NCBI GenBank assembly: GCA_031973055.1
Contig: DALYDS010000002.1
Location: 1 to 36,980 of the forward strand
DNA from: a bacterium
GTDB taxonomy: Bacteria; Patescibacteriota; Gracilibacteria; BD1-5; JAGOOR01
Direction of reading: 5' to 3'
Length of the DNA stretch: 36,980 nucleotides
The position numbers and the translations under genes are program-made. The stretch's first letter is position 1. Every line of letters begins with the position of its first letter. Below the pieces are notes generated by a model. The model was not told the origin of the DNA, made no database searches, and saw nothing but the letters and a program-made list of their open reading frames with translations. Shown in pieces: positions 1-36,980 of this stretch.

Positions 1-164
1 ATACGAAGCTCATCCGTGTACTCACTCATGAATTCGGGCATGCCCTCTGACTCATGCATGTCGATGATCCTCGAGCTATTATGTACAGACTTAATCAAGA
101 CGAGAGCGAAACATTGACTGAAGCAGATATTACAGAACTTTCAAAAATTTGTCGACTCAGATAA
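1..164 (+). CDS. 3' end of a metzincin-type zinc metalloprotease (5'-truncated by the window edge)
   Basis: Frame 3 reads TKLIRVLTHEFGHAL[TGA]LMHVDDPRAIMYRLNQDESETLTEADITELSKICRLR, then TAA at 162-164. HEFGHALGLxH is the HExxHxxGxxH zinc signature and AIMY resembles a Met-turn. The invariant Gly is encoded by TGA at 48-50. Confidence 0.6.
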
Positions 165-203
165 CATTGCGCCAGGTAAATACAATCTATAATTTATTTC
201 CAG

Positions 204-1277
204 ATGAAGAAACTCCTCCTCTCCTCCTTCCTGGCAACAAGCATGTTTGCTTTTGCTTACACGCAAGTTGATATAGAAAATGCGAATTATCTCTCGGGCA
301 AAAGTATCATCAAAGCTCAATCATCTGCCACCAAATACCGTCTCGATGATACAATTACACGTGCAGAGGTAATAGGAATTGCTATGAAAATGAAATGAGA
401 AAATCTCCCCAAGGATTATACTTGCAAAAAGTATTTCACTGATGTAGTAAAAAATGATTGGATATGCAGAGCTGTGGAACTAGGAGCTAAGGCGGGTATT
501 GTCTCTCGGGAAAATGCTAGATTCCGTCCACTAGATCCTATTACAAGAGTAGAAGCATTAGCAATACTGATGAATTCTATGGGTACACGATGAGAAGAAA
601 CAGTCATTTCTCCCTTTCCATTCACCGATGTAAAAAAATGAACCTGGGAAGAAAAGTGGATATCAAGAGCTTACACTCTCAATATAATTACAGAAGCACC
701 TTGTGATTCATCTTGAGACGCAAGAACATGTTCTGGAGTATCATTTGGTCAATTTAGACCCACTAGTAATGCTACCAGGGCTGAGTTATTTGAGTTTGCA
801 AAAAATACTTATACATATGGTGTAAGTATTGGACTAGTGTGAAACCCTGAAAGCGCCTTTTTGAGTTATTCATACAGCTATACAACGGATGAAAACTATG
901 TTTACAAGAATAATAACATTGTCCCCAATATTGACCCTTCATCTTTCAGGATTAATTTAAAAGATTTCATAGAAGATAAAGATGGTGTTTATAAATATGA
1001 CGCCACTTCAAATATGGCTTATAAAGTTACATGAATTGACAAAGAAAGTATGAAAATATTAAACTACAATTATATCAAAGATGCTTACAATGTTTACCTC
1101 TGTACAAACTATGATGAAGCCTATGAATGTAGAATATTGCCAAATATAGATGTTGCCTCATTTTCCTGCTATGATCTAGAAAAGTACGGAAATCTTTGCA
1201 AAGATAATTATCATCAATATGACCTGGCCGGAAAAGAACAAAATATCGATTCTGAGATTTGGCCAAATAACCTATAA
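204..1277 (+). CDS. Secreted SLH-domain surface protein with a DKNYY-like C-terminal region
   Basis: Track ORFs 204..398 and 1050..1277 share one frame. The interval between them has no TAA/TAG, only in-frame TGA at 396, 591, 639, 714, 840 and 1032. The N-terminus is a signal peptide (MKKLLLSSFLATSMFAFA). Three SLH-like repeats are present (ITRAEVIGIAMKM; FTDVVKNDWICRAVE...FRPLDPITRVEALAIL; FRPTSNATRAELFEFAKN). The C-terminus has D-K-N/D-x-Y-Y-like repeats. Confidence 0.7.
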
Positions 1278-1286
1278 TTTACTCAT

Positions 1287-1961
1287 ATGAAAAAACTCTT
1301 CTTCTCTTCCCTCGTTGTTACTAGTGTTCTCGCTTTCGCTTATACACAAGTAGATGTCGATAACGCGACCTACCTTGCTGGTAAAGGAATTATTACCACC
1401 CAATCAGCGACAACTAGTTACCGTCTTGATGATACCATTACACGTGCTGAAGTAGCTGGCATAGCTCTCAAATTGAAGTGAATAGATTTGCCAGAAAATT
1501 ATCAATGTAGGAAATACTTCTCCGATGTCACAAAAAATGATTGGATATGTCGAGCCGTCGAGATCGCTGCTGATGCAAGATTTATTTCTCGGACCAATAC
1601 AACATTTCGACCACAGGACAAGATTACAAGAGCAGAGGCATTGGCAATTATAGAAAAGGCAGGTGGATTAGAAAAAATCACCTATATTCCTGGGGTAACT
1701 GATATGCGTGGTTCAATTGCTTTCGAAAAAGCAGTAGAAATAGCTTGGCAACGTGATGTATTTTGGACGTATATTAATAAATCTTACCAATATACTCAGG
1801 AGTGAGGCGAAAATTTTGAAGATGATATTAGCTATAATCCAAATAACTCTGCTTCGAGAGCTGAAGTATTTAGATTTACGAAAAATATCATGGAAATCAG
1901 AACAACAATGTCTGGTGAAATCACGATAACTTCGCAAGATCGAGCAGCAATCGAAAAATAA
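1287..1961 (+). CDS. Secreted SLH-domain protein, paralog of 204..1277
   Basis: Track ORFs 1287..1481 and 1488..1805 plus a tail to TAA at 1959-1961 lie in one frame, joined by TGA at 1479 and 1803. The N-terminal ~110 aa align with the upstream gene (AYTQVD..N..YL.GK.II..QS..T.YRLDDTITRAEV.GIA.K.K[TGA]..LP..Y.C.KYF.DV.KNDWICRAVE). The first TGA sits at the same aligned position in both paralogs. Confidence 0.7.
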
Positions 1962-1983
1962 TTTTATTTCTTTATTTTCTTCT

Positions 1984-2571
1984 ATGAAAAAAACCCTTTT
2001 TATTATCCTCGCGATAATCGTCGTCGGTGCTCTCTGGGCTGTCGGACAATATAACTCACTGGTCTCTGGTCGTGCTGGAGTTGATCGTGCATGGAGTGAT
2101 GTAGAGGTGGTTTATCAGCGTCGTGCAGATCTCGTACCTCAGCTCGTCGCAACAGTCGAAGGCGCAGCCAACTTTGAGAAAAAAACACTTACTGATGTAG
2201 TCGAAGCTCGTGCCAAAGCAACACAGGTCAAAGTCGATCCTACAAATGCTAATAGCATGGCACAATTTACGACATCACAAGGAGAACTCACAGGAGCACT
2301 GTCTCGTCTTCTCGTAACAGTAGAAGCCTATCCGACTCTTACAGCCACTCAAGGCTTCCGCGACCTCCAATCACAGCTCGAGGGATCAGAGAACCGCATC
2401 GCTAATGTCCGGTCTGACTATAATGGCGTGGCAAATACCTGGAACGTGACCGTTTCTCGCTTCCCAACAGTATTTATCGCTCGTCTCCTTGGTTTCGACA
2501 AGGCAGCTCTCTTCGATGCTCAACCTGGCTCAGAGAATGCTCCAAAAGTAGAGTTTAATTTGGACAAATAA
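1984..2571 (+). CDS. lemA: LemA family membrane protein
   Basis: An intact 195-aa ORF with an N-terminal TM helix followed by YNSLV...V..AWSDVEVVYQRRADLVPQLV..V....NFEKKTL..V..AR, which is typical of LemA. A TPM-domain gene follows, the usual LemA-TPM pairing. Confidence 0.85.
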   Translation: MKKTLFIILAIIVVGALWAVGQYNSLVSGRAGVDRAWSDVEVVYQRRADLVPQLVATVEGAANFEKKTLTDVVEARAKATQVKVDPTNANSMAQFTTSQGELTGALSRLLVTVEAYPTLTATQGFRDLQSQLEGSENRIANVRSDYNGVANTWNVTVSRFPTVFIARLLGFDKAALFDAQPGSENAPKVEFNLDK

Positions 2572-2600
2572 ACCTTCTAGCAAGAAAATAGAAATGGGTT

Positions 2601-2711: not shown

Positions 2712-2774
2712 AAACGAATCAGCTAACTGGGCTTGATACCCGCCTCCGCGGTAATGACGAACAAGAAATCATTT

Positions 2775-3644
2775 ATGAAAAAAATCTTCCTCTTTGCTCT
2801 CTGCTCTCTGCTTTTTTCTTTCAAGGGAAGTTTTGCTGAATTCATAGTTCCCCCTCTCCCCTCTACTCCTGTCTATGATGAAGTTGTGCTTTTAAAGTCT
2901 GAAGAAAAAACAGCCCTCGAACAACAAATCCTCACACTCGAAAAAGAAACCAATCATCAAATTGGTATAGCAATTATCAAGAGCCTCCAAGGCCGAACGG
3001 TTGAAGAAGCCTGACTCGCAATCTTGAGAGGATGGTGAATCGGTCAAAAATGACTCGATAATGGCCTACTCATACTCCTCATGCCTGTCGGTTGAGTATG
3101 AGAAAGAGAGATGAGAATAGAGGTCTGAAAAGGGCTTGAGGGAGTGATAACAGACCTCATGTCCCGGAGAATTATCGATGAGAATTTCACCCCTCATTTC
3201 ATAGAAGGAAAGTATGGTGATGGTCTCGTTGAAGGCATCAATCGTATGGCGCCGCTTCTCAGGGGTGAAGTCGTCACTCTCCCAGAAAATAAAGTCTCTA
3301 ATATTGATGATATACAAGGTATTTTGATGATAGTTGCTGTCTTTGGATGGTGACTCTTGAGCGTCCTCTCTGCATCGAAATCATGGTGGCTAGGAGGAGT
3401 TTTCTGAGCAATAATCGGATTTTTTGTGATGTGAACAATAGGAGTTTTTTTAATTGGGATTTTCGGGCTCATTCTCGATTTTTTTCTTTCAAAATATGCT
3501 TACGGGAGAATCCCCTTTCTCAGAAGCATGGGTAATAACCGTTGGTGAGGGGGTGGATGATTCGGGTGAGGCGGCTCTAGTGGTGGCTGGGGTGGTTTCT
3601 GATGAGGAAGTGGCTGGGGTGGATGATCGAGTGGTAAATGGTAA
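2775..3644 (+). CDS. TPM-domain (YgcG-like) membrane protein with a Gly-rich C-terminal tail
   Basis: Track ORFs 2733..3014 and 3144..3353 plus short pieces share one frame through to TAA at 3642-3644. It carries 16 in-frame TGA. The protein has a signal peptide (MKKIFLFALCSLLFSF), then LEQQILTLEKETNHQIGIAIIKSLQG..VEEA[G]LAILRGW[G]IGQK[G]LDNGLLILLMPVG..REMRIEV[G]KGLEGVITD, two TM helices, and the tail W[G]GGG[G]FG[G]GGSSGGWGGF[G][G]GSGWGG[G]SSGKW. An alternative start is possible at 2754 or 2733. Confidence 0.85.
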
Positions 3645-3679
3645 ATTAGATATTTAGGATTTACCACTATAATTTCTCT

Positions 3680-4084
3680 ATGAAAAAAATAATACCCTAC
3701 GCAAGTATTTTGACAGTATTTTCTCCTGTTACTTTTGCAGATTGGAAAATCATAAATTGTCCAAATGGTAACTGTCTCAGAGCATGAGTGGATGCAATAA
3801 AACAGTACATAGCCAATGCCGGTCTCATAGCTGATAAGCCTCTCTCGATAGCAATACAAGATATTATTCAATATTTCCTCTCATTTTTGAGTTTGATTGC
3901 TGTTATCTACATCATGTGGGCAGGCGCGCAGATGCTGCTTTTTCCAGCAAATGAAAACTCCAGTGAAAAAACCAAAAAAATTATTATATCAGTCATTGTC
4001 GGATTAACCCTTATCTGGTTTGCATGGTGGATAGTGAATTCACTCTTTTTTGTTCTCGGAGGGTCATGAGTGTCTACAAATTAG
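3680..4084 (+). CDS. Small two-TM pilin-like membrane protein (TrbC/VirB2-like architecture)
   Basis: ATG at 3680, one TGA at 3785-3787, a second at 4067-4069, and TAG at 4082-4084. It has a signal peptide, a Cys pair (NCPNGNC), TM1 (FLSFLSLIAVIYIMWAGAQML), a short polar loop (PANENSSEKTKK) and TM2 (IIISVIVGLTLIWFAWWIV). This layout matches the pilin-like small proteins common in CPR and Gram-positive conjugative elements. TATAAT at 3668-3673 lies only 6 nt from the ATG, so the mRNA may be leaderless. Confidence 0.55.
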
Positions 4085-4560
4085 TATTTGATAATTAGTA
4101 ATCATATTTGTCAATACTCTTCCCTATACAAAGAGTGCGTCAGAACTTTGAATTCTCATGAACAATCTGGTACGATGGTCGTATATAACTCATGAAAAAG
4201 GCAATTCTCATCATATTTCTCTCGCTCACAGCATTCGTTTGTTTCGATGCCTTAGCCCAAAACTGGTCATTTAGCTGTAGCGGAAACAATTGTTTCAAGG
4301 CAGGCGTAGATTACGCTGGGAACACTATTGGTAAGAGTTCTGGTATTATCACTGGTAAGTGAATTGCAGAAGCTGTACAGGACGTTATCATCTATTTTTT
4401 GGGATTTCTCGCACTTATCTCTGTTATCTACATCATGTGGGCAGGTGCACAGATGCTCCTCTTCCCATCTGATGAGGAATCAAGCGAAAAAACCAAAAAA
4501 ATTATTATATCAGTCATTGTCGGACTTTTTGTGATATTCTTCGCATGGTGGATAGTGAAT
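3901..4560 (+). repeat. Direct duplication of the pilin-like module (3901-4039 versus 4422-4560)
   Basis: The two copies align without gaps at an offset of 521 nt. I counted 24 mismatches in 139 nt (about 83% identity). One 39-nt run is identical: 3965-4003 equals 4486-4524 (gaaaaaaccaaaaaaattattatatcagtcattgtcgga). Confidence 0.85.
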
Positions 4561-7500
4561 TTCATATTCAAAATACTCAATAATAAAGCGGCTCTCTCAG
4601 ATACGTGGATACCCCGAGCAGTAGCAGAGACACAAATTCGTGAAGTAGATTTCACGACCTACAGTAATCGCATACAGGCACTCAAGACAAAACTCTCCAC
4701 GTACAGCCCAGACATTACTCGCGAACTCTCTATCCTCGTCGATGGCGCATTTGATCACCTCCCTGACAGAGGTGATATGTACGTCAATCAGCAATACTAT
4801 GATAAAGTAAAGGCACAGATAACAAACTACGATCTCCATCACGACAGTATCGATCTCGGGACGCTCAACAATGCTCTCGATAAATTCTTACAACAGAGTA
4901 AAACATTTACGATTGAAGGACAAGTATCAGCAGCGCCTCGTACAGGTGACGCACCTCTCTCTGTAACATTGGAAGCAAAAGGCATGAAAGACGGAAGTGG
5001 TACACTCATACCAGACACAAACTATATATGGTGGGTACGGGTACCTGAAGGATCCAAAATTATTGGACGAGGGAAAACTATCAACTATATATTTCAGGAT
5101 GAGGGAACCTACACCGTCAATCTGACAGTAAACTCTGCGAGTAAAAATAGCAAAGGATTCCGTGATGTTATCAACTTCGAAGACAGTGTCACAATAGAAG
5201 TAGGACAACCAAAAGTAAAATTTGTGGTCTTTTTCAATGATCAACTCGCTACTGATAATGTGAAATTGTCATCACGAGAATCAGAACAAAAGGTTATCAT
5301 CGATGCCTCTCATACCAAATTTTCTTCTGGCTATACTATCAAAAAAACAGAATGGGACTTCGGTAATGGTAAAACAGATACTGTCGATGGAGCTCCTCTC
5401 ATCAAAACACAAGACTACAAAGAAGGAGAATACATCGTGAAATTAAAACTGACACGAAACGATGATGAAGTATTTACCAAAAATATTATTCTCAAAGTGG
5501 GTGATCCTATTGCCTCAATTTTTGCGAGCAAGCTCCAGCCAGACAAGGGTGAAAAGGTGACTTTTCAAGCTAAGAAGGTAAGCCAGGATGGTGTATCATA
5601 CGCTTGGGAAATCAGAAAAATAGGCTCAAATAGCCTCCTCGCCACAGCAACCGGTCCACGCATGGAATATGCATTCCTCGATGTAGGACGTTATTCTGTT
5701 GATCTCATATCTTCGAAGAGGGATATACGCGACAAAGAAAGCATAGAAATCCTCATCGATTCTCAGGTGCCAGTCGTACGATTCGATGCACAAGTCGAGA
5801 GTTCTGAGACTCCAAATATCTATCTATTCGATGGAACAGCCAGCTACGATCCTGACTATCCTGATGATCAGACTATGAAATATGAGTGGTTCATCAATGA
5901 CAAGCCTGTTCAATTAGTCGACACCAACTCGAGCAATAGTCGTGGAAATTATATTTTCCCAGAAAAAGGCACATACCAAATCGAGCTTCATGTCACTGAT
6001 AAAGAAGGTAAACAATGAATATTTAAGAAGACAATCAGTATCAAAAATCTCCTCTCTATTCAACTCAATATACGACCTCAGGTCGTCAAGCGTGGTGAAC
6101 GTGTACTCCTCTCTGCGACAGCACCAAATGCCGAAACATTTGAATGGAATATAGCAGGTAAGGAACAGGTCATACAAGAAACTGGTAAACTCATCACCTC
6201 GTTCGATAAATCAGGGACCTACCCAATGACCATAAAAGTAACAGATACAAATGGCGACACAAACATGCTCAAACGCAAAATCTATGTCGTTAATGGTGAA
6301 GAACCATTTGCCATCATGAATGTCACATCCAAGAGTCTCCTCTCAGGATACGAGCAAAATGCTTGTGAAGGACAAGAAGCACTCATTGCTGATCGTGTCT
6401 CTCCGGTCTCATTTGTGGGAGATAAGAGCGTCAACGCTGGTGGCAAAACGAGTGATCTCACGTATTTCTGGAAAGTAGGCCTCAATAAAACCTCTACTCA
6501 GAAAAATCTCAGCCATACATTTGATGAGCTCGGATGTGAAAAAGTCACCCTCATGGTCTCAGATAAAAAAACTGGTGTGACACATACAACAGAAGAATGG
6601 ATAAAGGTCGTCAACGTACCTCCGAGATTTTCTGATATAGAAGTGTCTGTAGAAAATATAGATATGGACCCGATGAAGGTCAATCTCCGTATCCAGGGCG
6701 CAAAAGACCCTGATGGAGTTATCCGTTCTTATACATGGTATTATGCCACTAATCCAGATGGGGACGAACCTCTCGGATTTAGGATTACCACAAAACCAGA
6801 GACAAGTTTGGTATTACAAAAACTCACAGGACGATATTACTTTTTCGTCATCATGGAGGATTCCAATGGTATGAGAGTGGATACTCGGAGCTCTTCTGAG
6901 ATGAGATTCTCAACTCCAGACCTCCTCATCAACCAAAATCTCGCGATGCCAGTGATAGATTTCCGTGTGAGTAGCAACGAAGTAGCATATGGTGACGAAG
7001 TAACATTTGACGTGACAGTCGAAGACGTCTTCAAGAAAAACATAGCTGACGCTTCTGAGTTTCGTTGGGATGTCGATGGAGATGGATTCTATGATATCAA
7101 GACAACACAGCCAACATTTAAATACAAATATACCACTCCTGGAGAATACCATCCAAAAGTAAAAGTCACTCATCGAGGACTCTCGACAACCAAATCACTC
7201 AATATCAAAGTCGTCAATCGGCTCATACCTCAGATTGATCTCCAGATTATCTGAGAAAAAATCATAGCCTACAATACATCAACTGGTATATTTGAGAGTG
7301 TTGCATGGTTTGCTGATGATAAAAAAATCTCAGAAAATAAAGAATATCTCTACTACGATGCATCTGGTGGGACATTCCCAAAAACTCTCAAGATACAGAT
7401 ATCAGACGGTAAAAAAACAGAAGAAAAAATATTTAATATTGCAAAAAATACTCAGAACAAAGCTATCGTCGAACAAATAAAAAATCAACTCGTCGTCCTC

Positions 7501-9651
7501 ACAAATTCAGATGGCACCATTACAGAGGCATCCGATAATATCGTATGGACTGATGGAACAAAACCGCTCTTTATCTATCTCGGAGAATCTCAGGGCGATA
7601 TCAAATACTATATTATCGACACCGATGTCGACATAGACACTGATTTATCAGGGGGCAAGGATGACGATGCTGACAATAAATGAACAGCATCATACAGAAT
7701 AGGTAGACCATTTCAGGTACCAGCTGGGACACAGAGAGTGACAATTATGAAGATACGACTCCTCGGTGCCGATGGTGAAGAAATAGGGAAGTCTCGACAG
7801 ATGCGTGTCACTCGTGATTTCATAGCTCCTATCGAGATAGTACCTGTCGTGACTGATGATAAAACACCAAAAAAATACAATCTCACGGTCGAAGACAAAG
7901 CACGACTTGAGAAACTCAACGCTCTCGTCAAAACAATACCAGAAACAGAGAGAAAATTATTTACGAAGTATATAGATCAGCTCGGTGATATCTGGTATGA
8001 TAGAGCTGACAGAGCAGAGACACTCCTCCAATTCTCACAAGCACTCCAAGCAAACAAAAATATATCTCCTGATCTCAAAGAACGTCTCGAGACAGCTATA
8101 GAACTCGTCTATACACAAGGAGAACAAGACGTAGAACAAAAAATTCTCGCTCGAAAAATCATAGCCGATTTCCTCGCTAACAGCCCATTCAAAAAGCAGA
8201 TATTTGGAGACGGTAACAAGGTAGGAGCACTCGATGAAATCATCGATAATCCAGAATACTATGACAAAAATAAATCTCTCATTACCAAGATTTACGATGA
8301 GTATGTCTTCACTGATGCAAATATTTCTGAAGAAGGCAAAAAGGCAATCAAGGCAAATCTAGAAATCCTCATTGGTTCCGCACCTGATCCAACGACAAAA
8401 GACCCAACCAATCCAGACAATCCACCTGTTGATAATAATCCTGCAACATCGGTAAATTACATGGAATATGTTGATAAATATGGTCTCCTCGCTGGTGGTA
8501 TACTAGCTATTATTATAGGACTCTTGGTAGTATTGAGCTTATTCCGATGACGCTCAAGAGGCTCAGATTCATGAATTCCTGATTTTCCAAATGAACATAA
8601 TGAAAGCCCTGCTGAGCCTCAACACGGTCCAGGCTGGCTCCATGACGATCACGATACAGGAGTACACCAAGACGATTCCGCAACTACCTCAAGTGATGCA
8701 CCTGACTGGCTCAAAGAAGCCGGGTCACCATTTGGAGAAGAAGATGTATTAGCAAAAGAGTCTTCGATTTCTGATAAAAAAAGCGAAACCGTAGTAACCC
8801 CCACACCTACCACAACAAATAAAACCACTTCAGATATCCCTGATTGGCTCAATGATTCCCACGATGAGAAAACAACAACACCAGTACCAACACAAACTCA
8901 AACAAAAGAGACTCCAGCTCCAGTAACAACATCACAAAACGATATTCCTGACTGGCTCCATGAAGATAATAGCACACCAGCTCCTGCCGCAAATACCAAT
9001 CCTCAGAACTCTCCTGAACCAGCTCTTGCTACAGAAACACCAACATCAAATACAACAAAAGAAGATCTCCCAGACTGGCTCGCCGGAGCACATGAAGAAG
9101 AAACAAAAATGCCAGAACCAGTGGCAACGATAGAACAAACTCCAGAAACAACGTCAGTGAGTTCCCCTGAACCAACAGTGAATGAGATTTTTACACCTGA
9201 AACAAATACAACAGGACTCGCTCCAACAACAGCCACTCCAGTCTCTCTCGATCATGATGATATACCAGATTGGTTGCGAGGAGCAGAAGAAGCAACAGAG
9301 TCAACCGTAGAGGCTTGAAAGAGTGAAGACAAGAACGATAATGTTGTTATTCCTCCTGTGGATACATGACTCGCTACTCCCGATGACGTTCCAGAAAGTC
9401 CTCTCACAGAAAAGTCAGACGACATTCAGACAGGGACAATACCAAAAACGTCAAAAGGAAAATGGAAAAGTGATACTCACTGGAAAAAAGACACAGAAAA
9501 AGCTCCCACCACTAAAAAAACAAAAACCATGAAAGATAAAAAGGAAACAAAAAAAGTAGCACCCGGGCTTCTCTGACCAGCCGAACATATCATAGGTCCA
9601 ACACATGACACATTGCTATCAGAATGACAAAATACTTCAAAATCTGAATAA
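4192..9651 (+). CDS. Giant (1,819 aa) surface protein: N-terminal pilin-like two-TM module, PKD-repeat ectodomain, third TM helix, PDWL-repeat tail
   Basis: Track ORFs 4399..6018, 6226..7254, 7738..8550 and 9109..9318 are all in frame 1. I checked codon by codon that the gaps contain only TGA (4360, 6016, 7252, 7681, 8548, 8572, 9316, 9367, 9574, 9625) and no TAA/TAG. The stop is TAA at 9649-9651. The N-terminus has a signal peptide, a SFSCSGNNC Cys pair and the same two-TM module as 3680..4084. Several PKD-like units follow (WDFGNGKTD...GEYIVKLKL; YEWFINDKPV...GTYQIELHVTDKEG; FRWDVDGDGFYD...GEYHPKVKV). A TM helix YGLLAGGILAIIIGLLVVLSLF lies at about 8476-8541, followed by basic residues. Confidence 0.75.
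8629..9276 (+). repeat. Six copies of a (D/E)-(I/L)-P-D-W-L peptide repeat in the C-terminal tail of the giant protein
   Basis: The copies are PGWL 8629-8640, APDWL 8698-8712, DIPDWL 8833-8850, DIPDWL 8941-8958, DLPDWL 9064-9081 and DIPDWL 9259-9276. Thr/Pro/Glu-rich spacers of about 30-60 codons separate them. Each copy is followed by acidic or His residues (HDDHD, KEAG, NDSHDE, HEDN, AGAHEE, RGAEE). Confidence 0.8.
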
Positions 9652-9660
9652 TTACTCCTC

Positions 9661-12000: not shown

Positions 12001-12004
12001 GCCT

Positions 12005-25184: not shown

Positions 25185-25553
25185 ATGAAAATAATATTGA
25201 TTCGACTCCTTCTCGCCATTGGAGCTATGGCTATCCTCGGATGAGTCATAATTGGTACAAACAAATACCTCGACAACAAAAAACTCCAAGATCGTCTCTC
25301 TCAATTCACAGGAGAATATGCTGAACTCGCTCAAAAATGTCTCTGAAAAGAAGATGGTATCACCTGTTGTATCAGCTCTGTCCAATCCATGCAGGATGCT
25401 CAAGCAACTCTGACACCAGAAAAATGATGTCCTGACGGCAGTGTCGTGAATTCTCTGAAGTGTATTAGTTCGTATGCTTGGTGTGAAAAAAAAGACCTCA
25501 AACCAAAAGACCTCAAATGAGCACCACCGAAAGAAATCATCAAATACTATTAG
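25185..25553 (+). CDS. Small secreted or membrane-anchored Cys-rich protein (122 aa)
   Basis: ATG at 25185 with an N-terminal helix (MKIILIRLLLAIGAMAILG). There are four in-frame TGA and 7 Cys (CL, CC, CPDG, C, C). The stop is TAG at 25551-25553, which overlaps the convergent yhhQ-like stop. Confidence 0.45.
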
Positions 25554-26164: not shown

Positions 26165-26199
26165 GCGCTGGAGTGTATTGTCTGATACTCAGAAGTCAA

Positions 26200-27574: not shown

Positions 27575-28033
27575 TTATCTAAGAGCTTTTTGGATATCTC
27601 GAAGAGTTTCCGCTATCTCCTCTTCTGTCATGACATATCTAGTCGTATGATAATGATCCAAATCACCCACTGCTACTTCAGGAATAACGTGAAAATGAGT
27701 ATGAAAAACGCTTTTATTTTTGGTATTTCCGTCACGAACAAGCAAAGAGATATTTTCGTATCCGAGATTTTTTAAAACTTTGATAGCTACTTTTTGAAGA
27801 GAAAATATATCAGACATTTCCTCCGAGCTCAGCTCTGAAATTTGTCCAATATGACGATGTGGTATGACCAGTAAATGGTGTTTATGATATGGGGAACGTG
27901 CGTATGTCAAAAAAGCGTGTTGGGAATCAAGTATAATTTTTTCTTTACCGCCACAAAATGGACAGTGGGTGGAGGCTTGTAAAAAAGTACTATACGTAAT
28001 CCTACATTCCGGTTGTATTTCTCGTATTAACAT
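27575..28033 (-). CDS. HIT-family (histidine triad) nucleotide hydrolase/transferase
   Basis: An intact 152-aa ORF with the triad HTHFHVIP, an N-terminal CPFCG, and a genuine TAA stop. Confidence 0.85.
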   Translation of the reverse strand: MLIREIQPECRITYSTFLQASTHCPFCGGKEKIILDSQHAFLTYARSPYHKHHLLVIPHRHIGQISELSSEEMSDIFSLQKVAIKVLKNLGYENISLLVRDGNTKNKSVFHTHFHVIPEVAVGDLDHYHTTRYVMTEEEIAETLRDIQKALR

Positions 28034-28035
28034 AA

Positions 28036-28458
28036 TTATACTCTAAAAGTTATTTTGAGGTCAGCTACGTATCATAATATACCCGTTACAACTGATGAAA
28101 TAGTACGAGCCCACACATAATGAAACGCGAGATAGTGTATGAGGCCATAAGTTATAAAAAGAATGGCTATCAGAGAATAGAGAGCTATGATGAGAAATCG
28201 TAGGTATCCTTTTTTGAAATGCACAGAAGAACGAAATGTCCATCGCTTATTCACATAAAACCCTATAAATGATTCCGCAATGAACGCAACTGCACAAGAA
28301 AGAAGATAATGAACTCAGAAAAATCTCGTAAAAAACCAAACTAAAATCAAATTAGCTGCCAACATCAAAAAACCAGCAAAGGTATAACGGCTAAATTGAT
28401 GGATGTGGTGCTTATGATGATGTGAGAGAGCAGGTTTGTGAGCGGCGATAAAAGTCAT
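28036..28458 (-). CDS. GtrA-family membrane protein
   Basis: ATG at 28456-28458. The frame of track ORF 28072..28254 was extended across TGA (tca at 28315 and 28072) to TAA at 28036-28038. It has four hydrophobic helices and the GtrA hallmark NKRWTFR. It ends 2 nt before the HIT start. Confidence 0.65.
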
Positions 28459-28517: not shown

Positions 28518-28913
28518 CTACTCGAAATCTTTTCTCTCAAAAAAATCACGGTGATGTTCTTGTCCGAGAGGTTGATGAACGTGTTTGATGGCACAACTAT
28601 AGAGCTCCATTTGATTAACAACAGCCTTGGCGTAAGCAACCAAGCCATTAGCGTATTCACAGTAGAGACAGTTAAATTTTTGCCAAAATGTCAGTCGTGC
28701 TAACTTATAACGATCTAAAACAATATATTTTTTTCTCTCTATAAATGGTATTTCGAAAATACGAAAATAAATATTTTGGAATTGATACAAAAATATATCC
28801 ATCAAAACCAGCGGAACAATACAAATATAAGAAGAAATTGCGGCTACAATATCGAGAATTCTGTTGGAACAATCAAATTTGAGACCTTGTCCTGGAATAA
28901 CATGTTTAACCAT
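28518..28913 (-). CDS. Hypothetical membrane protein with a conserved Cys motif (NCLYCEYANG...SCAIKH)
   Basis: An intact 131-aa ORF ending in TAG. It has one or two N-terminal helices followed by LDRYKLARLTFWQKFNCLYCEYANGLVAYAKAVVNQMELYSCAIKH. Confidence 0.55.
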   Translation of the reverse strand: MVKHVIPGQGLKFDCSNRILDIVAAISSYICIVPLVLMDIFLYQFQNIYFRIFEIPFIERKKYIVLDRYKLARLTFWQKFNCLYCEYANGLVAYAKAVVNQMELYSCAIKHVHQPLGQEHHRDFFERKDFE

Positions 28914-29035: not shown

Positions 29036-29120
29036 TGGTGCCCAAGAGAGGACTCGAACCTCCATGCCTTGCGGCGCTACCACCTCAAGGTAGTGCGTCT
29101 GCCAATTTCGCCACCTGGGC
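29036..29120 (-). tRNA. tRNA-Leu (anticodon GAG), type II with long variable arm, CCA encoded
   Basis: The reverse complement is GCCCAGG-TG-GCGAAATTGGCAGACGC-A-CTACC-TTGAGGT-GGTAG-CGCCGCAAGGCAT-GGAGG-TTCGAGT-CCTCT-CTTGGGC-A-CCA (85 nt). It folds as a cloverleaf with a 7-bp acceptor stem, a T-loop TTCGAGT and an anticodon loop T-T-GAG-G-T. Confidence 0.9.
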
Positions 29121-29141: not shown

Positions 29142-29834
29142 CTATTTTTCGTTTTTCAAGTTTTTTGCTTTTTCTTCCTTACTTTTGAGATATTCACGGA
29201 TAACTTCTGACGCTGCGGCTTGACCTCCGAGGCCAAAAGCGAGGCCAAAAGCGAGGCTCACTGCCGACACAAAACCAATCAGAATAGAACGAACGAGATA
29301 TTCAGGTATGATCTCAATGGGACCAGTATTGATGAGATTAATAACTATAGCAAAGATAAAAAACAAAAACAAAACAACAGTGATGTTAGCAATGATAACA
29401 GCAGTTCTCGGGTTTTCGAAATTGACTGTATTAAAGACAATATTGTACATGGTTCGAGAGGTTTGAACTCCAAGAAATGTGATAAATACAGCCAAGAAAA
29501 GATAAGGAAGGTAACTGACAACACTATTGAGAAATTTTTCCACTTCTGTGTATCCTGCGAGCTCTACCGCACTTCGGAGAAAAAGTATAAAAATAGAGAC
29601 AGCGATATATTTACCAACTGCTTTGGGAAGAGGATCGCTCCCAATTTTTGTTCCATGTCACAAAAAACGATGGAGGAGATTTTCTAAACCGGTTGAATGG
29701 AGAAACCAAACAATAAAATAATAGGCTACCACAGAAGCGCCCATTCCGAGCAAAAGACGCTGTCATCCCATCACCCAGGGAGATTGTGTCCAATCAGAAC
29801 CAAGAAAATAATAAAGATTAAAAGAATCATTCAT
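29142..29834 (-). CDS. Hypothetical polytopic membrane protein (possible 'conserved TM helix' / MscS-N-like family)
   Basis: Track ORF 29142..29543 was extended upstream in frame across TGA (tca at 29658 and 29763) to ATG at 29832-29834. The in-frame TAG at 29880 is the uvrB stop. The protein has 4-5 helices and a Lys/Glu-rich C-terminus. Confidence 0.5.
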
Positions 29835-29879: not shown

Positions 29880-31829
29880 CTAGTTTTTCTCAAATGATAA
29901 TTCCAGTATTTTATCACGCAGATTAGCAGCTTTTTCAAAATCTAGATTAGCAGCTGCCACATCCATTTCGAGCTCCAATCTCTTGATATACGCCTCAAGG
30001 CTGACTCATTTAGGCACTTCAGAGGGTTCTTTTTTATCTTTGAATCAGAGATCTTTGATGCTTGAAATAATAGTGGTAGGAGTGATGTTATGTTTGGTAT
30101 TATAGTCTATTTGGACTTGGCGTCGTTTGGCTGTGATATCCATCGTTTCCTCCATAGATCGAGAAATAATTCCCTCGTGCGAGTAAAATACGACGTAACC
30201 ATTGGAGTTTCGAGCGGCACGACCGACGATTTGTATGAGTGATTGGGTAGAGCGTAGGAATCATTGTTTGTGTGCGTCGACTATACCAATAAATGACACC
30301 TCTGGGAGATCAAGTCCTTCTCGTAATAAATTAACTCCGACTATGACATTTACTTTACCAGTACGGAGGTCTTTGAGGATGCGTAATCGTTCTATAGTAT
30401 CAATTTCGGAGTGGAGATAGTGTGCTGATACGCCGTGTTCACGGAGGTATGTAGCGAGATCCTCACTCGATTTTTTTGTCACCGTCGTGATGAGGGCACG
30501 TTCGCCACGTTCGACAGCCTTGCGGATATTGTCGAGAAGGCTTTCAACCAATTTATCCATTGGTTCCACAGTTATGAGTGGGTCGAGGAGACCTGTTGGT
30601 CGGATTATCTGCTCCACGAGAGGTCATCCACGTTCTATTTCTGACTGTCATGGAGTTGCAGAAATACAGACGAATTGTTTTATTTTTGATTCAAATTCTT
30701 CGAAAAAGAGAGGGCGGTTATCGTAGGCACTTGGGAGTCGGAAACCATTTTCAATGAGCATATCTTTTCTTGCTTTGTCTCCAGCAAACATACCTCGTAC
30801 TTGCGACAGAGTAATATGAGATTCATCGACAAAGGCGAGATAATTTTCAGGGAAGAAGTCTAGTAGTGTCATGGGTGGAGCTCATGGTTCTCGACCATCG
30901 AGATATCGAGAATAGTTTTCAATTCCTTTGACATATCCAACTTCTGTCATCATTTCGAGGTCATATTCGACACGAGTTTTGAGACGTTCAGCAGCGACGA
31001 TATTGCCTTGTTCTTTGAAATATTTTATTCGTTTTTCGAGCTCCCCTAATATAGCGGGTTTGATAGCTTTGACATGTTCCGGGCTCGTGACAGTATGCGA
31101 AGCTGGGAAAATATCAACAGAGTTAATTGATTCGAGAACGTGAGAAGTAATTGGCTGAACAACGCGTATATTCTCTAGTTCTGTTCCGAAAAATTCGAGA
31201 CTATAATAGAGTTCATGACTCGCGGGAAATATTTGAATGGTATCTCCGAGAACACGAAACATGCCTTGTTTAAATTCAAGTGTTCCTCTCTCAAATTGGA
31301 GTCATACGAGCCTATCAATGAGCTCTTTCATGACATATTTCTCGCCAACACGGAATGACATAACGCCTCCGAGATATTCTTCTTTATTACCGATACCATA
31401 GATACAGCTCACAGACGCGACAATGATGACGTCCTCGCGGGTGAGGAGTCATTCGGTCGCAGCATGTCGCAATCTGTCTATCTCATCATTGATAGCAGAA
31501 TCTTTTTCGATGTAAGTATCGGTCTTTTGGATATAGGCTTCTGGCTGATAATAATCATAATAACTGACAAAATAATGGACAGCATTGTCTGGGAAAAACT
31601 CTCGAAATTCCTGACACAATTGAGCGGCAAGGGTTTTATTATGAGCGAGGATGAGCGTCGGTCGTTGGACTTTTTGTATGATATTTGCCATGGTAAAAGT
31701 CTTTCCTGAGCCTGTCACACCTTGAAGTGTTTGAAATCGATTGCCGGACTGGATACTCTCCACGAGTTTTTTAATCGCTTGAGGCTGGTCTCCCGTTGGC
31801 TGATAATTACTTTTGAGTTGAAATGGCAT
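29880..31829 (-). CDS. uvrB: Excinuclease ABC subunit B (UvrB)
   Basis: Track ORFs 31449..31829, 30882..31262, 30648..30872 and 30261..30617 share one minus frame and are joined only by TGA. The gene was extended to TAG at 29880-29882. It carries [36 protein letters not shown] and the C-terminal UVR motif [13 protein letters not shown]. Confidence 0.95.
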
Positions 31830-31842
31830 TTTTGACGATTTT

Positions 31843-32961
31843 TAGTGCTTCTTTTTCTTGATTATCAGTTCATTCTGTTATATCACGAGCTGTTGGGATA
31901 ATGATAAAATCAGGGATAATACCTACTCCGTCGAGGAGTTGTCCTCCTGCTGTTCTCCAATGAGCTGTGGTTACTTTGAGTTGTCCTCCGTTACTGAGCT
32001 CAAAGAGTTCCTGGACAGATCATTTTCCATATGTCTGCGAACCGATTATAGGCGCTTTGAGATAAAAATTGAGAGCGGAAGCGAGGATTTCAGAAGCCGA
32101 AGCTGTATTCGCATTCACGAGAATATAGAGAGGGGTGGTCGTGTTTTTTTCACCATAAGATGTGTATTGTTTGTTGTCTTTGCCTTCCACTGAGGCAATA
32201 ATAGAACCTTTTTTGAGAAAGATTGATCCTACATCGACGGCTGCTTGGAGTGTACCGCCTCCATTTTCACGCAAATCAAGGAGGATTTTCTTATATTTGC
32301 CTGCATATTTTTTGAGTGACTTTTGGACATCTTGACCAGAATAATCATTAAAAGAAAAGAGTTTTATGTGGAGAATATCGCCTTCGAGCTTGTCTTCCAT
32401 GATTGGTAGTTCGAGGTGTCGACGTATGAGAGTAACGTCTTTTTTGGTACCGAGAACTGTTGAGAAAATCTGAATTACAACTGACGTCCCTGCGGGTCAT
32501 CTAATTTTTTTAACAGCATATTCTGCCGTCTTTCCGTATAAAACCTCACCATCCACTTTTTGGACAAGATCTCATGGTAACAGTCATGCTTCTTGTGCAG
32601 GAGATCCTGGTAAAACGCCACGTATATATACATCGCTCGCATTATTCTCAATATAAGCACCTATGCCTTCAAAGTCGCCCTGTATCATGGTTTGGAAGGC
32701 GAGAACTTCGTCTGGAGGGAAATAGGTTGTAAATCTATTACCATAAGAATTCACAAATCCGGAGATGAGATGATTTTGTACGATGTTGTTTGATGGTTTT
32801 GGGAGGTATGTATCGAGGATATTTTGCAATTCTGAGTAAGGTATGTTATCCTTATTAAATACAGCCGTTGCGGGACTTTTAAACATTGGAATACCTGGTC
32901 CGAGAAAGATCAAAAAGGAAAGGAAGATTCCTGTAAAAAAGAAGAAGAGGTTTTTTTTCAT
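31843..32961 (-). CDS. ctpA: S41 C-terminal processing peptidase (Ctp/Prc-like) with a PDZ domain
   Basis: Track ORFs 32584..32961 and 32020..32400 share one minus frame. TGA occurs at tca 32584, 32572, 32497, 32020 and 31870, and the stop is TAA at 31843-31845. It has a signal or TM anchor, the PDZ motif GVLPGSPAQEA[G]LLP[G]DLVQKVDG, DLRENGGG and the catalytic-Ser motif NANTASASEILASAL. It ends 13 nt upstream of the uvrB start. Confidence 0.85.
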
Positions 32962-33133: not shown

Positions 33134-34213
33134 ATGCCGTCTTACAAGATACATAGTTTAAAAGATAATAAAAAACTCTCATTTATAATAGAATGAGATT
33201 CTGATTCTTCTGTGGAACAAAAACTCTCAGGAGAAGGACATATAGTGCTCTCTGTTGAGGAGATACAACTCGATCAAGGTATACAATTTTTCTCTTTCGA
33301 AGGAAGAAAACCTGCAGATAATTCTTTTATTTCTGGAAAAATATCAGCAGAAAATATTTTCACAGCGTATGAGATGTTAACGAGAGATTATAATTATGGA
33401 CTGAGCCGACTCTATCCTTCTGAAATAGAAAACCCTGCCGAACAAGAAAAAATATTTCAACAACTCCTCTTCTCATTTCAGGAGAAAAAAGTAGAGAAAA
33501 AAGTAGAGAAAGCAGACTCTTCACAATGAAAAATTCAGAAAAATAAAAAGAACATACAAGCACTTATAACCTATATTGAGACAGAAAAAACCCTTTCAGA
33601 CAGCGAAGTAGTAATACAAGAACTCAAAAAACTAGATCAAATAAATAATAATTCAATCATCGAGGAAACACTCAGAAGTACCATAAAAAAAATATATAAA
33701 AACACCTCAAACAAACAAAAAATTCACCCCACCATCAAAGCAATAGCAAACGATCTTCATATTTTTCTCATACCACCTCTCTATAGGAGATTAGGACAAA
33801 AAACCCAAGAAATATTTGAGTTTTTTTCACCACTTATCCATCCTTCCGACAGTACTTATTCACCAAAAGAGATAAAAAAAGAGGTAACCCATGATACGAT
33901 ACAAAAAGACCCACACATCAATAAGCTCCTTCATCAAAAATATCACTCTAGTCTCATAAATCTGCTCGATATACGAGAAAGACAAGCTTATTTTTATGCG
34001 CTTTTCCGACAAAAACCAACTATTTTCCTCGGGAAAAAATCCTCAAAAATCCTCCAAAAAATCCTCCACACCAGCCTTGTTGTTTTTATTCTCGGTATGT
34101 GTATTTTAGCTCTCCTCGGTAAATACAATTTGTTTTTCTTTTCAACAGAGATTTTTGTGATGTTTGTGATTCTTTTGTTCTCCTCTCTTGTTTTTCTGGA
34201 CCAGACTGTATAA
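33134..34213 (+). CDS. Hypothetical protein (359 aa) with a C-terminal membrane anchor
   Basis: ATG at 33134. The track ORF 33212..33529 is in the same frame. There are TGA at 33194 and 33527 and no TAA/TAG until TAA at 34211-34213. The middle is Lys-rich and the C-terminus has helices (LVVFILGMCILALLG, IFVMFVILLFSSLVFL). I recognised no motif. Confidence 0.5.
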
Positions 34214-34220: not shown

Positions 34221-35453
34221 ATGTTTGTCCTCCTGAGTTTGATACATATAGTTTTTGCGTCCATTTTTTTCCTCTTCGGGAGATATATAGAAATGTGAGT
34301 TATTGTTCTGGTTTATACTTTTTTCCTCTCCAAAATCATTACCCCACTTGATATATTTCATCGGCCTGCTTTTTTCCTCTCCAAAACACCAGATAATAAA
34401 ACTCTCGAGCAATCCCTCTACCTCAGTTCGGGAATATTGTTTTACACAGCTCTCATAGGTATATCACTCGGAATATCTGATTATTTTAATATATCTGTTG
34501 ATTTACAACTCTTTCATTACAGTGTATTTTTTCTCACCAGTGTTATTTACGGCATATATCTGCTCTTTTATCCGAAAAATCCGAGCGCTTTTCTCCTCTT
34601 CCGAACTCATACTATCCTCGCCGGACTTATAGTGAGTGGCATGGTTCTCGGAACGCTCTTCTTCGGCTTATTTTACATCGGTATTACGATGATCATCAAT
34701 CTCATCCTGCTGACATGCGGCATGGCGATAGTCATCATTCTCGACAGGACAATACCCAAGAATACACACATTCTCACGGTCTACTTTTTTGTTTTTTATT
34801 CATGCATGTTGGTGCTTGCACTACTTTCTTTTACACGACCAGAGATCAGCACTTCTGTATTTTTTGTCGTTGCTACTCTCGCCACACTTTATCTTATTTT
34901 TCCATTTTTCCTGTCCAAAATTGTCAGAGAATGATATCTCAAACTCCTCTCCTGGCATTTTTCAAATTTTGTCCTCGGTATTTCATGGGCATGTTTCTTT
35001 TATTTTTCCTGGGCTCTCTTTCTCTCCCCAGAATATTCACACCTAGTGACGTATGTAGGCTTTTTGCTTCTTTTTGCTCTCTGGGCATGGGTATATGCTT
35101 CCGAGGATCACAACCCCATCTTTTTCTCAGGTATGGTTATCGTGACAGGCACTCTGTACTCCTATCTCCTCTTTTCTAGTGGATTATTTTTGGAGTTCTG
35201 GGTGATTACTATCTGTCTCTTTATTTTTGCCTGACTTTTGTTGCTCTCGTCTATGAACTACAAAAACAAAACCGAAGAACTCATCCTCGCGGGAGGCAGT
35301 GTGATATTTTTGTGCGTGGCAGACTTAGTCATGATTTTCCAGGATTACGGACTCTTCCAGCTCTCGATTCTCTTCTTTTTCCAATCATTCCTCTGGTACG
35401 GTGCATACGAGATATTTCACCGACAATCGTATGTTAAAAACGCAGCACTATAA
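34221..35453 (+). CDS. Hypothetical polytopic membrane protein (410 aa)
   Basis: ATG at 34221 lies 8 nt after the upstream stop. Track ORFs 34437..34934, 35046..35234 and 35238..35453 are all in frame 3. They are joined by TGA (34296, 34932, 35232), and the stop is TAA at 35451-35453. The protein has about 10 hydrophobic helices. Confidence 0.6.
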
Positions 35454-35970
35454 ACGATATATATCGAATTTTTCACTCGATGCTGTGATAGTAGGTACGT
35501 ATTTTGACGATGAAATGCGCCGAAAAATCCATCGATTCAAGTTTGTCCACAATCATGTCGACAATGTCTACTTTGGAGAGCTTTTTGCTCAAATACAAAA
35601 GGAATACCCCTATATTCCAGACGTCATAGTATACCCTCCAATTAGTCTGAGAGATAGAGTTCTGAGATGACCAAACCATGCACAAATCCTGGCTCAATAT
35701 TTCTCCGCTCAGGATGTTCCAATTATTTCCCCTTTTCGCAAAAAAATATTTTCTAGTCATCAGTCACGGCGAACGAGAGAAGAGAGAACACAGGTCAGAG
35801 ACGAATATTCGTTGAATCGAAAACATACAGAATACATCAAAGGAAAGAAAATCCTCCTCGTTGATGATCTCATTACGACAGGCTATACAGCTCACACACT
35901 CGGAAAACTCCTCAAAAAGGCTGGGGCAAAAGAGGTTGTGGGATACTTTCTCGCCAGTGAAAAAGTTTAA
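35431..35970 (+). CDS. comF: ComF-family protein (phosphoribosyltransferase fold)
   Basis: This is the frame of track ORF 35401..35670, continued across TGA at 35668 to TAA at 35968-35970. The sequence reads R[G]PNHAQILAQYFS..., then the PRTase loop GKKILLVDDLITTGYTAHTLGKLLKKAGAKEV. The start is ATG at 35431 (or GTG at 35401), overlapping the upstream gene by 23 (or 53) nt. Confidence 0.75.
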
Positions 35971-36447
35971 TTACTTTACAATCTCAGTCCTGAGAGAGAG
36001 TATGGGATATAAAACCATTTTTGAAGCAGGATCTGACATCAGCTCTCATAATTCATTAATATCATAGAATATATGGCCTTTTTGTATCTCACTGTCACTC
36101 GGAGCGCCGACAACACTTAATACAATATTATTCTTCACACGAATACCGCGTAAGAGAAAAAATAAATTTCCTCCAGAATTTTCTCAAGATGTGTCCAAAA
36201 TTCCGCCACGAACAGACTCAATAAGGAGTCTTTCACCATCTTCCTCCAACACATCTAAATTAATACCCCTTTCTTCTAAATATGATTTCATGCCAGCAGG
36301 AAATAATGCCTTTTCAACTTCCGAAGACGTTCTAAGCTGTACTTTTCCTGTGGCTTTTGATGGTGGCAGCATAGGGGGCTTCGGTAGTCAAAAATAAGGA
36401 CTTAAAGGGTCGTTATTTATTTCCGGCAGAAGAGAAGTCATGCTCAT
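35971..36447 (-). CDS. Hypothetical protein (158 aa)
   Basis: Track ORF 36184..36372 was extended across TGA (tca at 36388, 36184 and 36046). The start is ATG at 36445-36447, preceded by an in-frame TAG. The stop is TAA at 35971-35973, which directly abuts the comF stop. I recognised no motif. Confidence 0.4.
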
Positions 36448-36480
36448 ATACTACTCTAAAATATATTCTCTGTCAAAAGC

Positions 36481-36508
36481 TTGCCACAATGGGATATTTT
36501 TCTATACT
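36481..36508 (+). promoter_or_regulatory. Putative uvrA promoter
   Basis: TTGCCA (36481-36486), a 16-nt spacer, then TATACT (36503-36508). It lies 18 nt upstream of the uvrA ATG. Confidence 0.35.
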
Positions 36509-36526
36509 CTCATATCGCTTTCATCT

Positions 36527-36980
36527 ATGTCCAATACTATCGATCTTTTCTGAGTCACCACCCACAATCTACGAGATGTAGATGTGTCTTTTACCAAAAA
36601 CGCCCTCACCGTCCTCACAGGCGTGAGCTGATCAGGTAAATCATCCCTCGCATTTACAACCCTCTGCAACGAATGACAAAGGAGATATCTCGAGTCCCTC
36701 TCTACCTACGCTCGTATGTTCATCGGTGGCATGAGTGAAGAAGCAAAAGTCCGCGAAATACGGGGACTCACTCCTACTATCAGCATCGAACAAAAAACCG
36801 TTGCGCATAATCCTCGTTCAACCGTCGGTACCATCACGGAAATATATGACTTTTATCGTCTTTTCTTCCTCAGTCTCGGGACTCGTATCTGTCCACATGA
36901 TGGCGAAGCTATGACCAAAAAAACTCACAAAGACGTCATGGAATATCTGAAAAAAATCAAATCAGGGACACGTATAGGTA
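36527..36980 (+). CDS. uvrA: Excinuclease ABC subunit A (UvrA), 5' part, 3'-truncated by the window edge
   Basis: The sequence reads MSNTIDLF[G]VTTHNLRDVDVSFTKNALTVLTGVS[G]SGKSSLAFTTLCNE[G]QRRYLESLSTYARMFIGG...GLTPTISIEQKTVAHNPRSTVGTITEIYDFYRLFF. The TGA at 36629-36631 is a Walker A glycine, and the TGA at 36674-36676 is the Gly of the EGQRRY motif. Confidence 0.95.

Follow-up and report, generated by a model that had tools for sequence, protein, structure and literature searches.

Sequence evidence for UGA as a glycine codon (translation table 25) throughout a 37-kb Gracilibacteria-type contig

Among the bacteria that have captured the UGA stop codon as a sense codon, Mycoplasmatales, Hodgkinia, Nasuia, Zinderia, Stammera, and some Eggerthellaceae read it as tryptophan (translation table 4). 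Translation table 25, in which UGA means glycine, is attributed to Gracilibacteria (BD1-5/GN02) and Absconditabacteria (SR1) in those passages of PMC8629427 that cite Campbell 2013 and Rinke 2013. In recoded members of both groups the mechanism combines a tRNA-Gly whose anticodon is UCA and the loss of release factor 2 (RF2) (PMC8629427; gTranslate preprint 10.64898/2026.05.24.727570), and proteomics of a BD1-5 bacterium yielded 97 peptides unique to the glycine reading versus three unique to the tryptophan reading (Hanke et al. 2014, PMC4032931). For Absconditabacteria, CGA and CGG are predicted to encode tryptophan, as is CGG in some Gracilibacteria (Shulgina and Eddy 2021, PMC8629427). Here we report on contig DALYDS010000002.1, which was analyzed as one entire deposited contig of 36,980 bp (hereafter the window) and whose two end genes are cut by the contig ends. 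We conclude with very high confidence that it comes from a Gracilibacteria-type bacterium of the candidate phyla radiation (Patescibacteria) that uses table 25, with UGA serving as an ordinary glycine codon. The initial annotation of this DNA had proposed the same code and described it as established for Gracilibacteria/BD1-5 and Absconditabacteria/SR1, and the literature agrees (PMC8629427; proteomics, PMC4032931).

Among the three stop codons, TGA alone is singled out by open reading frame (ORF) statistics. The window has a GC content of 40.5%. Read with the standard code, its longest ORF spans 551 residues, and ORFs of at least 100 residues total 13,135 residues. Setting TGA to sense raises these values to 1,820 and 32,072 residues; with TAG or TAA as the sense codon, no ORF exceeds 551 residues and the totals are 18,982 and 19,583 residues, respectively. 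The TGA-sense map covers about 96% of the window with 29 genes, two of which are truncated at the contig ends. In-frame TGA occurs 113 times in 26 of the 29 genes, which corresponds to 0.96% of 11,830 codons and to 13.8% of the GGN plus TGA codon family. Neither TAA, TAG, nor a frameshift interrupts any gene across these 11,830 codons. Of the 28 genes that end inside the window, 19 stop at TAA and nine at TAG, as had been claimed for the ends that could be placed. The accompanying claim that every recognizable gene is split at TGA only applies to 26 of the 29 genes, in which TGA is the sole interrupter; the genes for LemA, the HIT-family hydrolase, and a 131-residue protein contain no TGA at all.

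Re-calling the genes with TGA as sense and searching for protein families, as the initial annotation had proposed, produced Pfam and solved-structure (PDB) alignments that run continuously across the TGA codons. Residues 3-647 of UvrB, for example, align with 2fdc_A (E = 4e-226) across eight TGAs. The families recognized by Pfam comprise an M10 peptidase, two SLH proteins, LemA, TPM, a T4SS-pilin-like protein, two PKD-repeat proteins, PrsW, ClpB, a TSP3-repeat protein, Lnb_N, Vut_1, RadA, HIT, GtrA, UvrB, an S41/PDZ peptidase, and a ComF-like phosphoribosyltransferase; the UvrA N-terminus was identified through homologues in other genomes rather than through Pfam. All 11 codons cited in the initial annotation proved to be in-frame TGAs with the frame, strand, and peptide context described. 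A composition profile and scans of the window for Rfam families and tandem repeats returned nothing bearing on the code.

Sequence comparison supplies three independent kinds of support for glycine as the meaning of UGA: alignment columns of standard-code homologues, codon exchange with recoded relatives, and paralogues inside the window. For the first, we tabulated the residue opposite each TGA, using standard-code sets of 80 UvrB, 43 UvrA, and eight S41 sequences. All three UvrA TGA columns, including the Walker A glycine of GVSGSGKS, hold glycine in 43 of 43 sequences. UvrB columns 316 and 523 are glycine in 77-78 of 80 sequences and column 394 in 49 of 80, and the other UvrB TGA columns vary (A/S, D/E, I/L, K). 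Four of the five TGA columns in the S41/PDZ peptidase have a glycine majority (8/8, 5/8, 8/8, and 8/8), the fifth being variable. Structural and single-protein alignments point the same way. TGA 48 is the glycine of HEFGHxLGLxH in an alignment to matrix metalloproteinase structures, TGA 14903 is the glycine of RVVGQ in Thermus thermophilus ClpB, and in the PDB alignment of RadA, TGA 27304 is the third glycine of VLGGG, TGA 26389 is the glycine of FVGE, and TGA 27175 lies opposite serine. In the TPM protein, TGAs 3036 and 3126, which correspond to the glycines of WGIGQ and GyGLEG, face glycine in all three PDB homologues, and the tail columns are glycine in nearly all distant homologues. Counting those distant TPM homologues, 18 of 27 alignable TGA columns have a glycine majority, and summed log-odds over the 27 columns give +52.8 bits for glycine, -38 for the runner-up serine, and -62.6 for tryptophan. 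The earlier statement that TGAs fall on invariant glycines therefore describes many of the columns, the others being variable (A/S, D/E, K, I/L).

For the second kind of evidence, we aligned codons with four TGA-recoded relatives: CAZWBM010000001.1 (L011), which is syntenic and 84% identical in UvrB; GCA_041660965.1 (L212); a 183-kb Joint Genome Institute (JGI) contig (L213); and the more distant CAZEON010000016.1 (L028). The 101 aligned TGAs of the window face 45 GGN, 25 TGA, and 31 other codons but no TGG, and in the opposite direction, TGAs of the relatives face 49 GGN, 25 TGA, and one TGG. In L011, the eight UvrB TGAs correspond to six GGN, one TGA, and one GCC; sites 176, 402, and 595, which are not glycine in distant bacteria, are GGG, GGT, and GGA there. 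The uvrA TGAs correspond to TGA, GGT, and GGA in the same relative, and those of RadA (27418, 27304, 27175, and 26389) to GGT, TGA, GGT, and GGA. TGA 35668 of the ComF-like gene is GGG in L011, TGA 29658 of a 230-residue membrane protein faces GGT there, and the TGAs of a 122-residue gene face TGA, GGC, and AAT in its L011 and L213 orthologues.

The third kind of evidence comes from within the window. The glycine of the xGDxC motif in the TSP3-repeat protein is encoded by TGA in two repeats (20314 and 20593) and by GGN in seven others, and TGA 3785 of a small pilin gene lies opposite GGN in the paralogous N-terminus of its giant neighbor. TGA 396 of the first SLH protein lies opposite TGA 1479 of its paralogue, the second SLH protein.

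We also examined the codons for tryptophan and arginine. TGG occurs 131 times in the mapped genes, aligns with conserved tryptophan in ClpB, TPM, and RadA, and in comparisons with the four relatives faces TGG in 110 of 129 cases and TGA in one, bearing out the view that TGG still encodes tryptophan. CGA occurs 125 times (106 per 10,000 codons), with conserved arginine opposite in 10 of 11 columns. CGG occurs 23 times, of which only four could be aligned, and exchanges with CGA, AGA, and AGG in L011. Against that relative, CGA and CGG face only arginine (CGN/AGR) and lysine-type codons and never TGG. On these sequence comparisons CGA and CGG behave as arginine codons; a second reassignment of CGA/CGG to tryptophan was considered and rejected on the arginine columns and arginine-type exchanges, although the CGG sample is small.

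Set beside the described codes, the window resembles table 25 in having UGA at conserved glycines, UGG as tryptophan, and UAA and UAG as the only stops, in a GC content inside the reported 0.21-0.53 range, and in nearest named homologues from Candidatus Gracilibacteria; among the tested features there is no difference, although the nearest GTDB representative bears a 'Peribacteria' title. The extended code of Absconditabacteria shares UGA = Gly with the window but differs in CGA usage, which is below 37 per 10,000 codons in that group (PMC8629427) compared to 106 here. Table 4 is alike in that the UGA stop was captured as a sense codon, with RF2 loss expected, and differs in the amino acid, which is glycine in the window and not tryptophan.

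Several observations weigh against reading UGA as glycine here. In distant homologues, about a third of the alignable TGA columns hold residues other than glycine; these are variable sites, several of them GGN in a close relative, and such variable columns are as expected of an ordinary glycine codon. Catalogue proteins of close relatives show tryptophan at TGA columns, which we traced to translation with table 4. The nearest GTDB species representative (L011, 84%) is titled 'uncultured Candidatus Peribacteria bacterium', yet it is clearly TGA-recoded. Lastly, the 37-kb contig carries no tRNA(UCA), prfA, or prfB, so that the decoding machinery of the source genome is not visible there.

The sole tRNA of the window is a tRNA-Leu(GAG), and there is therefore no UGA-decoding tRNA on this contig; nor was a tRNA(UCA) present in the loci of L001, L002, L011, L028, L212, L213, and L214 in which we looked for one. 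When metagenome contigs were scanned for a pattern that joins a glycine-type acceptor stem to a UCA anticodon, tRNA(UCA) genes were recovered on TGA-recoded contigs L094, L100, L148, and L162, and also on L215. The tRNA has the acceptor GCGGGGG...CCCCCGC followed by U73 and an encoded CCA, measures 79 nt including CCA, and has a 7-bp acceptor stem and a variable region of normal size. Its ARAGORN fold shows a 6-bp anticodon stem, an 11-nt D-loop, and a 4-bp T-stem. The gene adjoins tRNA-Gly(GCC) on each contig (L100:624-796, L162:3980-4151, L094:2639-2799, L148:8419-8641, and L215:3717-3882). GC content is 0.38-0.41 for L094, L100, and L162 and 0.29 for L148, and ORFs of the tRNA(UCA) contigs are 3- to 9-fold longer with TGA as sense. 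The order tyrS-tRNA(UCA)-tRNA-Gly(GCC)-ymdB, the last encoding a YmdB-family phosphoesterase, is found at three loci, in L100, L162, and L215, recurring on a 462-kb contig, and is not kept in L214, a more distant named Gracilibacteria metagenome-assembled genome (MAG). These genes provide lineage-level support only, as no link was found between their contigs and the genome of the window. By analogy with characterized members of the lineage, a dedicated UCA-anticodon tRNA with glycine identity elements (G1:C72, C2:G71, G3:C70, and U73) would decode UGA, RF2 would be absent, and RF1 would read UAA and UAG. In the window itself, UGA supplies about 14% of glycine-family codons, with UGG as tryptophan, CGA/CGG as arginine, and only UAA and UAG as stops. 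We infer from the same analogy that this particular genome has tRNA-Gly(UCA) and has lost RF2.

The pattern scan also returned matches that ARAGORN reports as 'tRNA-???(tc)', with a two-base anticodon, in L095, L096, L098, L102, and about 30 other loci, among them assemblies with BNJ and VOF prefixes. We considered these as a possible new feature and rejected them, judging them to be genes resembling tRNA-Gly(UCC) in which a long-read assembly has lost one base of a homopolymer. They probably represent such deletions selected by the search pattern, and the two-base anticodon would fit a 6-nt anticodon loop (CUUCAA).

The best surviving alternative, which we nonetheless consider very unlikely, is that UGA means glycine without a dedicated tRNA-Gly(UCA), for instance through wobble, or that it is ambiguous, with glycine accompanied by minor tryptophan. 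The tRNA is not observable for this genome, rare non-glycine peptides have been found at UGA (Hanke et al., PMC4032931), and U34 wobble could blur UGA and UGG (Shulgina and Eddy, PMC8629427). Recoded relatives, however, carry tRNA(UCA) with glycine identity elements (see also PMC8629427), and codon exchanges keep TGA and GGN cleanly apart from TGG, which speaks against any sizeable ambiguity over evolutionary time.

Decoding of UGA as tryptophan under table 4 is less probable still, to the point of being barely credible, even though public catalogues appear to favor it at first sight: catalogue copies of the window's proteins and of their close relatives carry tryptophan at UGA. By exact look-up, a large protein catalogue holds the GtrA and ComF proteins of the window in the version with tryptophan at UGA and not in the glycine version. 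Close TPM relatives in the catalogue contain 15-24 tryptophans per ~285 residues, at columns that are glycine in distant homologues, and among the best 120 UvrB matches, 12-14 have tryptophan at the invariant-glycine columns 316 and 523. By contrast, the 11 NCBI-named UvrB matches, products of table-25 translation, show glycine at column 523 in every case and at column 316 in 10. Inspection of the DNA behind the JGI TPM protein P0047 (L213:10001-10861) showed that 13 of its 21 tryptophans are encoded by TGA, and in the NCBI TPM orthologue P0053, 10 of 46 glycines are. Tryptophan thus stands at these columns in catalogue relatives because gene callers translated TGA with table 4; coding-density heuristics cannot separate table 4 from table 25, and catalogues therefore translate these genes with tryptophan. 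The initial annotation had held that its proposal would fail if alignments placed tryptophan opposite TGA. Tryptophan is almost never found there in standard-code homologues and was seen only in table-4-translated catalogue proteins, against which such a comparison gives a false alarm. The column log-odds, together with the lack of TGG opposite any aligned TGA of the window, exclude tryptophan, which is also incompatible with the invariant glycines of the UvrA Walker A motif, the metzincin HExxHxxGxxH motif, and RadA VLGGG.

We give a negligible chance to a standard code under which premature TGAs mark pseudogenes or assembly artefacts. Table 11 does fragment nearly every gene, and the prediction that a standard-code annotation would be broken up is confirmed by table-11 calls on near-identical contigs, which split RadA (74 + 221 residues) and TPM (79 + 64 + 53 residues). 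TGA, however, is the only interrupter; frames downstream of TGAs are conserved, with up to 87% identity in relatives; independent assemblies either keep TGA at the same positions or carry GGN there; and contigs near-identical to the window, though shorter, come from at least 10 independent samples. Equally negligible is local recoding through selenocysteine insertion or programmed read-through: ARAGORN calls any UCA-anticodon tRNA 'tRNA-SeC', but the 113 UGAs are spread over 26 of the 29 genes, which are unrelated, and stand where glycine and not Cys/Sec belongs, the Rfam scan of the window shows no SECIS-like or other RNA element besides one tRNA, and the tRNA(UCA) of recoded contigs, with its 79 nt and 7-bp acceptor, is unlike tRNA-Sec in architecture.

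Reading UGA as glycine gives the following features (coordinates in the window, strand, product, basis of assignment, and in-frame TGAs).

3..164, + strand: M10 (matrixin-type) metallopeptidase, 3′ end (Pfam PF00413); one TGA (48).
204..1277, + strand: SLH-domain protein 1 (Pfam SLH and DKNYY), ending in TAA; six TGAs (396, 591, 639, 714, 840, 1032).
1287..1961, + strand: SLH-domain protein 2 (Pfam SLH); two TGAs (1479, 1803).
1984..2571, + strand: LemA (Pfam PF04011, E = 7e-51); no TGA.
2754..3644, + strand: TPM-domain protein with a glycine-rich tail (Pfam PF04536); 15 TGAs (3012, 3036, 3051, 3093, 3099, 3126, 3351, 3405, 3432, 3546, 3558, 3567, 3600, 3603, 3624).
3680..4084, + strand: small T4SS-pilin-like protein (Pfam PF18895); two TGAs (3785, 4067).
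4192..9651, + strand: surface protein of 1,819 residues with pilin domain and PKD repeats (Pfam T4SS_pilin and PKD); 10 TGAs (4360, 6016, 7252, 7681, 8548, 8572, 9316, 9367, 9574, 9625).
9661..12000, + strand: PKD-repeat protein of 779 residues (Pfam PKD, syntenic orthologues); four TGAs (10402, 10933, 11239, 11344).
12005..13099, + strand: PrsW-family membrane protease (Pfam PF13367); two TGAs (12320, 12878).
13169..15787, + strand: ClpB (Pfam ClpB domain set); two TGAs (13409, 14903).
15804..18479, - strand: protein of 891 residues from an unknown family, an intact ORF only with TGA as sense; nine TGAs (18405, 18081, 17823, 17475, 16986, 16941, 16605, 16038, 15897).
18660..19220, + strand (the least certain strand call in the window): hypothetical protein of 186 residues (ORF map); one TGA (18960).
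19327..21183, + strand: thrombospondin type-3 repeat protein with a C-terminal anchor (Pfam TSP_3, E = 8e-51); five TGAs (19483, 19582, 19795, 20314, 20593).
21197..24313, + strand: polytopic membrane protein of 1,038 residues (ORF map); 13 TGAs.
24314..25147, + strand: Lnb_N-domain protein (Pfam PF13387); two TGAs (24359, 24704).
25185..25553, + strand: hypothetical protein of 122 residues (orthologues in L011 and L213); four TGAs.
25550..26218, - strand: Vut_1, queuosine-precursor/vitamin transporter family (Pfam PF02592); two TGAs (26189, 25961).
26200..27528, - strand: RadA (PDB 5lkm_A, E = 1.5e-95); four TGAs, at the positions given above.
27575..28033, - strand: HIT-family hydrolase (Pfam PF01230); no TGA.
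28036..28458, - strand: GtrA-like membrane protein (Pfam PF04138); two TGAs (28315, 28072).
28518..28913, - strand: conserved hypothetical protein of 131 residues (exact copies on 21 other contigs); no TGA.
29036..29120, - strand: tRNA-Leu(GAG) (ARAGORN, Rfam RF00005).
29142..29834, - strand: membrane protein of 230 residues (weak MscS-like match to NCBIfam NF033912, below cut-off); two TGAs (29763, 29658).
29880..31829, - strand: UvrB (PDB 2fdc_A); eight TGAs (31449, 31302, 30882, 30648, 30624, 30261, 30045, 30006).
31807..32961, - strand: S41 (C-terminal processing) peptidase with PDZ domain (Pfam S41 and PDZ); five TGAs (32584, 32572, 32497, 32020, 31870).
33134..34213, + strand: hypothetical protein of 359 residues (L011 orthologue, 40% identity); two TGAs.
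34221..35453, + strand: membrane protein of 410 residues (L011 orthologue, 51% identity); three TGAs.
35431..35970, + strand: ComF-like phosphoribosyltransferase (Pfam PF00156); one TGA (35668).
35971..36447, - strand: hypothetical protein of 158 residues (ORF map); three TGAs.
36527..36979, + strand: uvrA, 5′ part (homologues); three TGAs (36551, 36629, 36674).

The window has no RNA gene besides the tRNA-Leu(GAG), whose position relative to the neighboring genes is kept in L002 and L011. The 891-residue protein matched nothing in Pfam, NCBIfam, or PDB; with a 188-residue TGA-free fragment as the query, it has only five relatives among 1.84 billion representative proteins and is therefore confined to this lineage. 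The 186-residue hypothetical protein has no family match, and the 1,038-residue membrane protein has no Pfam match.

One or more SLH proteins, LemA, TPM, a giant protein of about 1,800 residues, a PKD protein of about 780 residues, and PrsW form a conserved cluster that spans 204-13099 in the window, 9392-19684 in L212, and 8602-19662 in L213. The genes from LemA through TPM, the giant protein, and the PKD protein to PrsW are syntenic in the GCA_041660965.1 MAG and the JGI contig. The giant gene, which has orthologues in both, is a single unbroken ORF only with TGA as sense. The N-terminal 130 residues of its product constitute a T4SS-pilin-like domain fused to the PKD repeats, and beyond a transmembrane segment its C-terminus bears six acidic D[IL]PDWL repeats. 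The small pilin gene at 3680-4084 is a separate paralogue of this N-terminus. The cluster may encode an apparatus that an episymbiont carries on its surface or uses for attachment.

As for the lineage, the named top matches of UvrB, TPM, and the YmdB-type protein are all 'Candidatus Gracilibacteria bacterium', with UvrB identities of 83% to GCA_041660965.1 and 55-61% to the other named matches. This agrees with the earlier suggestion, drawn from the recoding, of a Gracilibacteria lineage. The contig carries no rRNA or ribosomal-protein marker genes on which a proper phylogenetic placement could rest. Both L011 and L028 are titled 'uncultured Candidatus Peribacteria bacterium' and appear TGA-recoded; ORF statistics and codon alignment together make the recoding of L011 clear, while that of L028, whose UvrB gene has no TGA, is indicated by ORF statistics only. 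The standard code is the one reported for Peribacteria; the GTDB class JAEDAM01, made up of Absconditabacterales and BD1-5 and equivalent to Gracilibacteria/Absconditabacteria in NCBI, is expected to have table 25, and the GTDB class Gracilibacteria, including Peribacterales, table 11; and the misfit orders JAYELJ01 and GCA-2401425, with table 25 and without RF2, have been flagged (gTranslate preprint 10.64898/2026.05.24.727570). The Peribacteria title points to a conflict of taxonomic labels, which is how we read it, or to recoding outside the recognized clade. Because that title leads to the table-11 class Gracilibacteria, it hints that the clade of the window, L011, and GCA_041660965.1 lies outside the code-25 class JAEDAM01, which we regard as unlikely. 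If this were true, UGA = Gly would be older or wider in this part of Patescibacteria than ground-truth lists assume, or alternatively it would have arisen or been lost more than once.

UGA = Gly has been known in this lineage since 2013, and the contig is an ordinary, additional Gracilibacteria example, consistent with the known route of stop-codon capture through RF2 loss and tRNA-Gly(UCA). Its value is practical, in annotation and catalogue contamination, rather than conceptual. The contig needs to be annotated with table 25. Table 11, which other pipelines applied to these genes with fragmentation as the result, shatters almost every gene, and table 4 puts tryptophan into the Walker A motif, metzincin zinc-site motifs, and glycine-rich tails. 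Proteins mistranslated in this way contaminate alignments, profile hidden Markov models, and structure predictions, and an inference of the genetic code from the residues of close relatives would be misled by such catalogue entries.

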